A stretch of 64,000 nucleotides of DNA, from contig CM097887.1 of the NCBI GenBank assembly GCA_044892525.1, positions 21,576,001-21,640,000 on the forward strand, written 5' to 3'. The DNA is from Schmidtea polychroa. Taxonomy: Eukaryota. The notes beneath the pieces are model-generated. The model worked only from the letters and a program-made list of their open reading frames with translations, did no database searches and was not told where the DNA came from. Shown here in pieces: positions 45,401 through 48,400 of the stretch. Position 1 is the stretch's first letter. Every line of letters begins with the position of its first letter. The translations under genes were made by a program, and so were the position numbers.

Positions 45401-48400
45401 AATAATAATCTATAAACAATAATAATCTATAAACAATAATCAATCATTAGTCACATTTAACAAATAGTTAACCTCTAAAAATGAATTCTTTAATAGAAAA
45501 CGTTATGAATGTCCGAGAAAAAATGCAGAAATTTGGTAAATTTTAATTTATTTATTAATTAATTTATTAATTAATTAATTTAGATAATATTAATGAAGAC
45601 AATTTAAAATCTAAGATTAAAGGAAATTTGAAAAGAAAAAGTAAACATAATTTTTAATTTATTGATTTAATTAATTAATAATTTAGGTAATACGAATAAA
45701 GAAAAAAATTATGTCAATGTGTCAATAAATCGAAATGAAAATTTACAATGTAAGTATTGATTACTTTTTATAATTTAAAGGAAATTTAATATAATTTTTT
45801 ATTTAAGTAAATGTTAATATTTTTAATTTAGTAAATTTTTATTTTTTAGTAAATAAAATTTGTAAAATAATAATAATTTGCAAATTTTTGCGTAAACATT
45901 TACTAAAATATTTCATTTAAATTATATTTTTTTTATTAAATTTTTATTTTATAGGTATACTTTACCCAAATTATTGTTCATCGAAAGAACATGATAATAA
46001 TTGCCATTCTATAATGGAGAATTATTACACGAAAAAATATTATAATAAAACTTATTTTATATGTCCCGTATGTAAGACTAGTGACCCCGTAACATATAGC
46101 GTTTTTTATAATAAACATAAAAATCATTTAGATAGGTTTAATTTTAAAAAAGATAGTGTTTTTAAAAGACCCTCAACTATAGAAAAAAATAATAAAAATA
46201 AAAAAATTAAATTAGATACTTCTTCTTTTGAATCCCAGGTCGGATTGCCTTTTGTGGAATCCAATGATGGATTGGTTGTCGAATCCCATGATGGATTGGT
46301 TGTTGAATCCCAGGTCGGATTAGATAATATTTCCCTTGACTCTTGGGATGGATTAAATATAATACAAATAGGTGGAAATGTTCCAATAATACAAAAAGAT
46401 TTAAGAGGTACCCATCAAATATTAAGCTTAAATACTAGCGACTTAAATATAAAAGAAATAATATTTCCTGAACAACTAATAAATAAATTACGAGATATTA
46501 TTAACGAATTAGGCTCCGTCAAAATTCAATTCGGAATAACAATCGAATTTGAAAAAGACGGGGAAATAAAGGTTAATAATATCTCAAATTATGCAAAGCC
46601 TTTAACTGCATCATTTTTTGATGAAGGCATTAAGGAATTAAATGAGAAAATTACTAATATTACTGAGTTAGGAAGCAGTTGGAATATAAAAAATATCACT
46701 GAAATACATTTCACCATAACAAAAATAAATAGGTTAAGTAGATTAAGTGGTAGGAGTTTCATTGAAACACCTACTTATCTAAAAAATAAAAATTGTTTAA
46801 TTAATATAAAAAACACTGATGATTCATGTTTTTTATATAGCATTTTAGCTATTTTAAAATATGATGAAGTTATTACACAATATAGGAATAGGACATCGAG
46901 TTATAATTTATCCGACTTAGTATACGACCCGTTAGAATTACCTATGAAATTAAAAGACATTAGGAAATTTGAATCTAAAAATCCAGGCTTAATAATTAAC
47001 GTTTTTTCATATGATAATAGCAAACAATTAACTGATAATTACGTATTAAAACATCCACATTTAGATATTATACATCGTTCCAAAGTTTTACATGGAACTG
47101 TAATTAATTTACTACTATTAAATAAAGGAAACAATTTCCATTACGTAGCTATAAGTAATTTAAATAAGTTAATGAATTGTCATATCAACACTAGTTGTCC
47201 TACACGCATACGTTCATTATGGTGCCATCGGTGTTTGAACGGTTTTAATAATAAACACGCACTGGACAAACATGAAATATTATGTAAACGTAATCAATTA
47301 GGAACAACTCTTTACACCTTCCCTCAAAATAAATTATTACAGTTTACTGACTGGTCGAAAACAGTAACTCCTCCTTTTGTAGTTTATGCAGATTTTGAGG
47401 CTATTTTACCTTCCGATAATGTTCATTTCCAACGACACATGCCAATATCTGCTGGTCTTTTACTTGTAAATAACTTTGACGGATCTAAATCTTATCAACA
47501 GTTCATAGGTTTAGATTGCGTCGAGAGTTTTTTAAGTGCTATAGAGGATATAGCATTATATAAGGTTCTTCCTTTTTATTATAAAATGGGTAGGAAACCT
47601 ATGATGAAATTAACAAAAATTGAACAACGTCAATTTGTTAGTGCATCTGTTTGTTATCTTTGTATGAAATCTATCGTCGATCCTGTTAGAGATCACGATC
47701 ATTTTACGGGGAAATACTTGGGTGCAGCTTGTAGCACATGTAACATAAATAGGAAAATAAATAAAATTTTGCCTATCGTATTTCACAACTTGAAGGGATA
47801 CGATATGCACCATATACTTAAATATGGATTAAATAAATTTAAAAATTGGACTTTAGGTTGCATCCCAATAACGACTGAAAAATTTATTTCTTTGATTGCG
47901 CATTTAGGAAAAATTAGCTTAAGATTCATTGATTCTTATCAATTTGTTAATGATTCTTTAGCTAAAGCAGTCAAAACTTTGAATACTTTACCTTTAACTA
48001 ATTCTGTTTTTTCTGGCACTATAGTTTTTGAAAAAGGAATCTTCCCTTATAATTTCGCTACATCCTTAGATATTCTCCAAACTACTTATGAATTACCACC
48101 AATCTGGGAAGGTGTCACTGAACTTGAGTATGAAAAAGCTCAGGAGATTTGGGTAGAAACTAATTGCGTAACTTTATTAGATTATATGATGATCTACTTA
48201 AAACTCGATTGTTTTCTTTTGGCTGATTTCTTTCATCAGTTTCGTTTGAAATCTATTGCTCACAATAAATTAGAACCATTGAATTATTTCGGAATTCCTG
48301 GTATGTCTTGGTCTTCTGCATTAATGTCTTTAGATGAACCAATTGAGCTCATAACTGAAAACGAAATGTTTAGCTTTTATGAGGGTGGAATAAGAGGCGG

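Follow-up and report, generated by a model that had tools for sequence, protein, structure and literature searches.

The polymerase gene at 45481–49823 on the forward strand of the window, the 64,000-nucleotide stretch of Schmidtea polychroa DNA analyzed here, encodes what by its sequence is a Polinton-type protein-primed DNA polymerase (pPolB). In the reading that we consider probable, this Polinton-derived gene is likely host-spliced from three mini-exons and sits on a single arm of a palindromic element that lacks an integrase and is itself likely copied by folding back and inserted with a borrowed one. The initial annotation had described a virus-derived polymerase adapted to the host splicing style. 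The 5′ spliceosomal introns of that description find support, but the lone, host-adapted gene does not, as it proves to belong to a high-copy palindromic transposon.

The annotated splice coordinates, intron phases, and protein length of 1347 aa were all verified by direct inspection of the sequence. Starting from an ATG at 45481, exons 1–3 (45481–45535, 45584–45640, and 45687–45749; 55, 57, and 63 nt) alternate with putative introns 1–3 (45536–45583, 45641–45686, and 45750–45954; 48, 46, and 205 nt), whose GT donors begin at 45536, 45641, and 45750 and whose AG acceptors end at 45583, 45686, and 45954. All three introns are phase 1 and join the exons in frame to a 1269-aa open reading frame (ORF) at 46014–49823, the added 234 nt, divided by three, and the 1269 residues together giving the 1347 aa. 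Each mini-exon is open in the joined frame when translated separately, and the final base of exon 3 serves as the first base of a split codon. The introns are markedly poorer in GC (4%, 9%, and 10%) than the exons (27%, 16%, and 21%). The same three-exon model was possible in 0 of 5000 resampled upstream sequences, a figure to be read with the fact that the model was built after seeing the real case. As to the tiny host introns of 44–50 nt said to occur in the window, one was verified, a 50-nt intron of the kinesin gene (43933–43982), but a crude scan returned no others. Promoter-like boxes lie just upstream of the start codon at 45374–45452 (a reverse CCAAT at 45374, TATAAAC at 45411 and 45428, and TTAGTC at 45447, forward strand), and sister families and metagenome relatives have similar boxes ahead of their start codons. 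At the 3′ end, the stop codon and an AATAAA span 49821–49837 on the same strand. The hexamer is indeed present 9 nt after the stop, at 49832–49837, and makes a weak poly(A) candidate because it occurs here 4.5 times per kb.

The conservation of a split codon, a feature read from sequence comparison, strongly supports intron 3 as a real spliceosomal intron. An alignment with 10 homologs places a C-x5/6-C-x4-H-x3/5-C knuckle upstream of Met 46014, where, together with a C2H2-like finger, it forms the putatively zinc-binding start of exon 4 (45955–46133, forward strand). Where the window gene has the codon divided by intron 3, all seven homologs in which this codon is whole have the first Cys of the knuckle; six of them start at a Met 2–5 residues before that Cys. 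The unspliced frame encodes a Gly at the same position, and the open genomic frame covering the knuckle has no in-frame ATG upstream of Met 46014. The T|GTAAG...AG|GT split recurs in two integrase-bearing Polinton families whose leader exons differ in sequence. In the first, the family's own motifs were found at 7 of the 15 loci examined, with three phase-1 mini-exons; six loci show an acceptor at the place of intron 3, there is one variant copy, and the third intron measures 707 nt in L187. The second family (L193, L194, L195, L197, and L198) has different leader exons; its acceptor was identified in L193 and L197, and four of the five loci show a matching donor. The position of intron 3 is therefore conserved in three families, while introns 1 and 2 are comparable by layout only because the leader exons cannot be aligned. 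Tiny phase-1 introns interrupt conserved positions in relatives as well: AT-rich GT–AG introns of 40–52 nt occur in relatives F6 (in the genome assembly, G000) and L101, L105, and L116 (metagenomes), one such intron falling where the window gene is continuous. The 5′ extension, which the initial annotation had called new, is not peculiar to this copy but found across the clade: some 20 of its 78 added residues represent the ancestral knuckle and the mini-exon layout is common to full Polintons and metagenome relatives. As a separate observation, another metagenome relative (L103:80–480) appears by eye to carry tandemly duplicated phase-1 mini-exons with near-identical introns in its polymerase linker.

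Within the palindrome family, 47 exon-1 matches were found in the sampled loci, 41 of them with all six landmarks, yielding 22 haplotypes. Exon lengths of 55/57/63 nt are unchanged in 17 of these, and all three introns read GT..AG in 19. By these ends and by a host-like size and composition, the introns conform to the U2-type spliceosomal class. Intron 1 ranges over 32–68 nt (six lengths) and intron 3 over 193–236 nt (12 lengths), an indel excess confounded by the repeats and length of these two introns; the length of intron 2 is nearly invariant. The same haplotypes bear on the optional 42-nt exon (45850–45891) proposed within intron 3. It does possess AG/GT flanks and an open, frame-preserving sequence, but its inclusion is unsupported: it would place an Arg where homologs have a Cys, and its flanking sites are absent in 4 of the 22 haplotypes. 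Its length is 42 nt in nine haplotypes, 24 nt in eight, and 58 nt in one, and it is unrecognizable in four; both common lengths, 42 and 24 nt, preserve the frame.

RNA-like data came from sequencing runs X1–X4, which were guessed to be RNA, none being on record as such, and from two very deep runs of unspecified kind, X5 and X6. One X1 contig, of depth 5.6 and from one study, skips the 46-nt intron 2 exactly, making intron 2 well supported as a real spliceosomal intron. This joint is absent from X5 and X6, and X2, X3, and X4 contain no intron joint. In this X1 contig, intron 1 with its in-frame stop is retained, and the sequence runs past donor 3 into a foreign stretch that has no exact match in G000, its five near matches there lacking an acceptor. 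Among the contigs of the runs examined, no exon 3–exon 4 joint was present, and two contigs cross acceptor 3 unspliced; the lack of contig cover over the optional exon and exon 1 was given no evidential weight. An X1 contig beginning at the first base of exon 4, considered as a possible splice branch, is explained by a variant 30 bases away. Of the three junctions named in advance as a check, then, 45640/45687 appears in one contig, but 45535/45584 is absent there, intron 1 being retained, and 45749/45955 was not seen. Expression as a full-length spliced mRNA, another part of the original proposal, is not borne out, given that the sole informative contig keeps intron 1 and exits the element at donor 3. 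Intron 1 must be removed for the frame to connect to the start codon; the common layout and its length variation speak for it, and this one contig contradicts it.

The encoded protein displays the hallmarks of Polinton polymerases, combining a terminal-protein (TP) domain with vOTU, Exo, and Pol domains. Of 7999 candidates scored against the exon-4 frame, 88 are relatives at E ≤ 1e-10, and identity is 49–61% in the top 11. A TP domain is predicted at 46374–46724 from a structure model, with a candidate priming Ser in a GSSW loop at 46671. It is followed on the forward strand by a vOTU-like protease domain (46770–47160), whose Cys (46827) and His (47139) are invariant in 22 of 22 aligned rows, and by the exonuclease, an inserted EndoVII/HNH-like domain, and the polymerase motifs (47385–49460), placed by motif positions and pPolB relatives; the Pfam Endonuclease_7 match has an E of 0.002, below the cut-off. 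The structure model covers the N-terminal part of the exon-4 frame at a mean pLDDT of 78 and matches adintovirus/MELD PolB with E of 1e-20 and 9e-10. Its best PDB rows are Y-family polymerases, a weak match (E 0.015) that fits the report by Krupovic et al. (10.1101/2024.03.18.585575) that Polinton terminal proteins resemble the little-finger domain of Y-family polymerases, and the conserved GSSW-loop Ser sits where that report places the linking residue. Pfam returned no PolB match for the window protein, PDB sequence and fold searches gave none at E ≤ 0.001 (phi29 polymerase reached E 0.14 by sequence), and a search of viral contigs gave five distant relatives, 25–33% identical.

The gene occupies one arm (44691–50421, forward strand) of a palindromic, integrase-less, Polinton-type element, recognized by homology to full copies and lodged in an intron of the host kinesin gene. 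In the window copy the center and second arm are missing and there is no matching left target duplication, only the right end being present; the 320 masked bases upstream are too few to hold a second arm. AT-rich tandem repeats fill the arm upstream of the promoter (44691–45330), with self-offset matches in every full copy, and the outer terminus, with its AGTAGGGAG... end, lies at 50240–50421 on the reverse strand, as defined by the terminal motif and the 6-bp duplications of full copies. This outer motif occurs 2565 times in G000 at ≤1 mismatch, the exon-1 start motif 758 times, and the arm/center junction 402 times, each against a control of 0; 88 of the first 100 junctions listed are facing pairs by hand count. 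Among the best-scoring matches to the 5′ region, 40 are full-length and near-identical, and most of these form diverging pairs. The copies examined are palindromes of 9–17 kb, with arms 97–99.8% identical over 5–7 kb and the polymerase pointing outward. Their ends read AGTAGG(G/T)AGTTAGTGG, and an exact 6-bp target duplication flanks 18 of the 19 elements having both ends. The center, 0.5–1.2 kb long, has AGTAGAGTAG ends of its own, and these inner ends are flanked by inverted rather than direct sequence in nine of nine cases. Integrase, ATPase, and capsid-like genes were found in 0 of 20 sampled elements, a search in which the positive control matched and for which the capsid query, having no Pfam capsid match, was a putative assignment by position. 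By its Polinton ends, recent multi-copy insertions, and lack of its own integrase, the element is a non-autonomous Polinton derivative. It falls outside the autonomous Polintons/Mavericks, their integrase, packaging ATPase, and capsid genes not having been found in it, and the wealth of exon-1 motifs and the intact outer terminus do not fit a domesticated single-copy host gene.

Several features of the arms suggest how these elements propagate. In all 12 elements with both arms sampled, the two arms are mutually nearest, diverging by 0–0.15% compared to a median of 2.7% between elements. They differ at 0–5 sites and are therefore not collapsed, and both share large deletions that vary between elements. 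The dN/dS of the polymerase is 0.09–0.18 (about 0.12) in 9 of 11 pairwise comparisons, these nine being between sublineages, and the two closest pairs reach 0.87 and 1.17, a pattern expected from selection during spread followed by drift after insertion. The polymerase thus appears to be under purifying selection, though unseen autonomous parents could also give low dN/dS. Just 10 of the 26 sampled arms have an open exon-4 frame of at least 1250 aa. Many copies moved even though both their arms are missing the 5′ exons, so that a gene of the window type is dispensable in cis, and some copies have no long ORF.

The integrase is likely borrowed from a full Polinton. In a quick tree, the window polymerase is sister to a full-Polinton polymerase (support 96, 66% identity), which likewise points outward at one end of its element. 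This sister autonomous family has at least 91 full-length integrase matches, and its ends begin AGTAGGG with a 6-bp duplication. The ends of this candidate helper and those of the palindromes have only the first seven bases and a GTGG motif in common and then diverge. A non-exhaustive search did not find an autonomous element with a window-type polymerase. In two other branches of the tree (F1 and F6), diverged polymerases also occur as inverted pairs, which suggests that palindromes originated repeatedly.

On the preferred reading, host Pol II would transcribe the gene from the CCAAT/TATAAAC promoter and the spliceosome would take out the three phase-1 introns, the mini-exons supplying the Met and the splicing of intron 3 completing the first Cys of the N-terminal zinc knuckle. 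The resulting knuckle–finger–TP–vOTU–Exo–HNH–Pol polyprotein would then prime at the identical ends of the element. The family may have originated from a Polinton in which synthesis that began at the polymerase end turned back on itself at an internal Polinton-type end pair and recopied the arm. Its 7-kb arms would act as giant terminal repeats, re-matched in every round through a panhandle, which would be the racket-like intermediate of the standing Polinton model as outlined in PMC4196379. Lastly, the integrase of an autonomous Polinton would insert the product with a 6-bp duplication. The genomic signs pointing to a fold-back intermediate are the inverted inner-end flanks and the matched arms. 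A more sweeping version, which is possible but tentative, holds that a clade of animal Polintons made its polymerase splice-dependent, through an intron in the first Cys codon of the zinc knuckle, and repeatedly spawned polymerase-only, 14-kb snap-back satellites that encode the replicase themselves, regenerate one arm on the template of the other in each cycle, and parasitize a helper integrase, with regulated splicing of intron 1 or 3 serving as an on/off switch for replication.

Alternative explanations differ in which part of this scheme they would replace. The splice sites could be real but mostly unproductive, with transcripts retaining intron 1 or splicing from donor 3 into neighboring DNA and the palindromes moved wholly by helper proteins. 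Such is the pattern of the only informative contig, and the fresh target duplications around copies devoid of 5′ exons or a long ORF, like the scarcity of arms with a long exon-4 frame, point the same way. The low dN/dS between palindrome sublineages and the conserved exon lengths nevertheless argue against it, and the contig, being of low depth, may be partly processed RNA; we regard this explanation as unlikely. Less likely again is that the introns are as proposed but the likeness of the arms stems from chromosomal conversion or assembly polishing instead of a replication cycle. Long inverted repeats can form hairpins, and arm identity could in principle have arisen by conversion after insertion or in the polishing of the assembly. 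Against this stand the large deletions common to the two arms of one element and different in the next, the few sites at which arms do differ, and the unique flanks with 6-bp duplications.

A start at Met 46014, with the upstream GT–AG pattern a product of chance in AT-rich DNA, would dispense with splicing altogether. The ORF from this Met does hold the TP, vOTU, Exo, and Pol domains, and several homologs in databases are annotated as starting at a downstream Met, but the conserved knuckle lies upstream in a genomic frame that offers no ATG, and the exact skip of intron 2, the conserved split codon, and the 0/5000 null render this start very improbable. Domestication as a host-controlled polymerase gene would account for the host-style introns, the promoter boxes, and the purifying selection. 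It is scarcely credible for a family of hundreds of dispersed young copies with target duplications, whose representative in the window is a truncated arm in a host intron.

Compared to known systems, the element combines familiar parts in an unusual way. Like Polintons/Mavericks (adintoviruses), it has the TP–vOTU–Exo–Pol order, an HNH-like insertion, AGT-type ends, and a 6-bp duplication, as these are described in two reports (10.1101/2023.08.22.554363; 10.1101/2024.03.18.585575). Unlike them, the palindromes have no integrase, ATPase, or capsid-like gene, and their ~7-kb arms each hold a whole polymerase gene, while Polinton terminal inverted repeats (TIRs) are reported as 100–1500 bp (Jeong et al., 10.1101/2023.08.22.554363). 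The spliceosomal introns of the palindrome polymerase contrast with intact vertebrate Mavericks, which one account gives as intronless (PMC8097293). The adenovirus E2B polymerase is a spliced parallel: it is also protein-primed and takes its start codon from a short upstream exon. The HAdV-A31 pol is annotated as c4866–8042 plus c13193–13201 (PMC2794291), and spliced E2B transcripts are reported in THEV (PMC11304566). There, a single 9-nt coding exon far upstream is common to pol and pTP in the annotation cited; the window gene instead has three host-sized phase-1 introns, one in a conserved Cys codon, and the resemblance need not reflect a common origin. Spliceosomal introns inside Polinton-like elements also occur in dinoflagellates, where introners in maverick-polinton-like elements were, by the published account, mostly inserted after integration (10.1101/2025.03.18.643946). 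In contrast to such mobile introners, the window introns are plain AT-rich sequences; their position is conserved between families, and the start codon is reached by splicing them. Group I introns have been found in cryptophyte elements (PMC12220804). Butterfly Polintons reportedly have ~2-kb coding TIRs, and polB-less mobile Polintons exist (10.1101/2025.02.07.637071); gene duplication in terminal repeats and mobility after core-gene loss are thus common to both systems, but in the palindromes at least ~90% of the element consists of the repeats, with the polymerase as the sole gene found. A further analog comes from outside the Polintons. Snap-back or copy-back defective viral genomes are palindromes derived from one parental end and depend on a helper, much as proposed for the present elements. 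The palindromes differ from them in being integrated, heritable, and present in hundreds of copies, with the polymerase kept under selection. Outside Repbase, subscription journals, and supplements, neither palindromic Polintons carrying only a polymerase nor conserved leader introns in a pPolB gene were found to have been described.

These considerations have consequences for annotation and for the Polinton life cycle. Because intact Mavericks are described as intronless, at least in vertebrates (PMC8097293), ORF-based annotation would start such polymerases at the wrong Met and miss the conserved knuckle at the N terminus. A start codon that depends on splicing points to expression in the nucleus with splicing by the host, to which it also offers a means of control. 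In a planarian, Polintons are silenced by piRNAs (PMC8532177). The self-synthesis model of Polintons, which as presented in PMC4196379 calls for a single-stranded racket-like intermediate, rests on bioinformatics, and the palindromes would make it testable. If the proposal is true, they record this racket-shaped intermediate in the genome, hundreds of young elements with 7-kb arms matched within each copy providing its direct readout. The arm pairs also offer a means of dating insertions, like the pairs of LTRs in retrotransposons, and a large target for detecting extrachromosomal forms.

Rearranged and related copies were seen elsewhere in the genome. Near the start of C1 (G000:C1:976000–995999, L059–L060), head-to-tail arrays with a period of 4.4–4.6 kb join the promoter, exon 1, intron 1, and part of exon 2 to other sequence, and also hold C-terminal polymerase scraps of a diverged family. 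At G000:C3:88700000–88729999 (L035–L037), an inside-out copy is inserted in another Polinton: an outer end abuts an inner end, and a tail-to-tail fusion connects two arms at their outer ends. This locus looks like a replication or recombination intermediate. A group of 9–17 kb palindromes without a long ORF (L073–L092; G3 and G5–G10) has the same outer ends and 6-bp duplications, the G10 palindrome possessing an inner end pair of its own. A 40-kb nest of palindromes (L061–L065, G000:C2:168003000–168047999) includes a diverged family whose polymerase has several tiny internal introns. A second, distant Polinton lineage (L173–L176 and L035–L037), with a polymerase 25–30% identical to that of the window and similar flanks, has two copies forming an inverted pair over ~28 kb. 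In one full Polinton, a short gene (L170:2780–3200) lies, by eye, head to head with the ATPase and bears what we take to be a TBP-like motif.

In the window itself, the host gene extends over 33361–53602 and is presumably kinesin-3-like; one of its exons matches Pfam Kinesin (E 5e-4). Because the host donor preceding the arm is phase 0, joining it to the polymerase exons, which are phase 1, would break the frame. Besides the Polinton arm and other repeats, the kinesin introns hold a Penelope-like element (35046–36308) with RT and GIY-YIG. A Gypsy-like LTR retrotransposon lies at 28413–32790 on the minus strand, its gag, protease/RT/RNase H, and integrase in separate ORFs.
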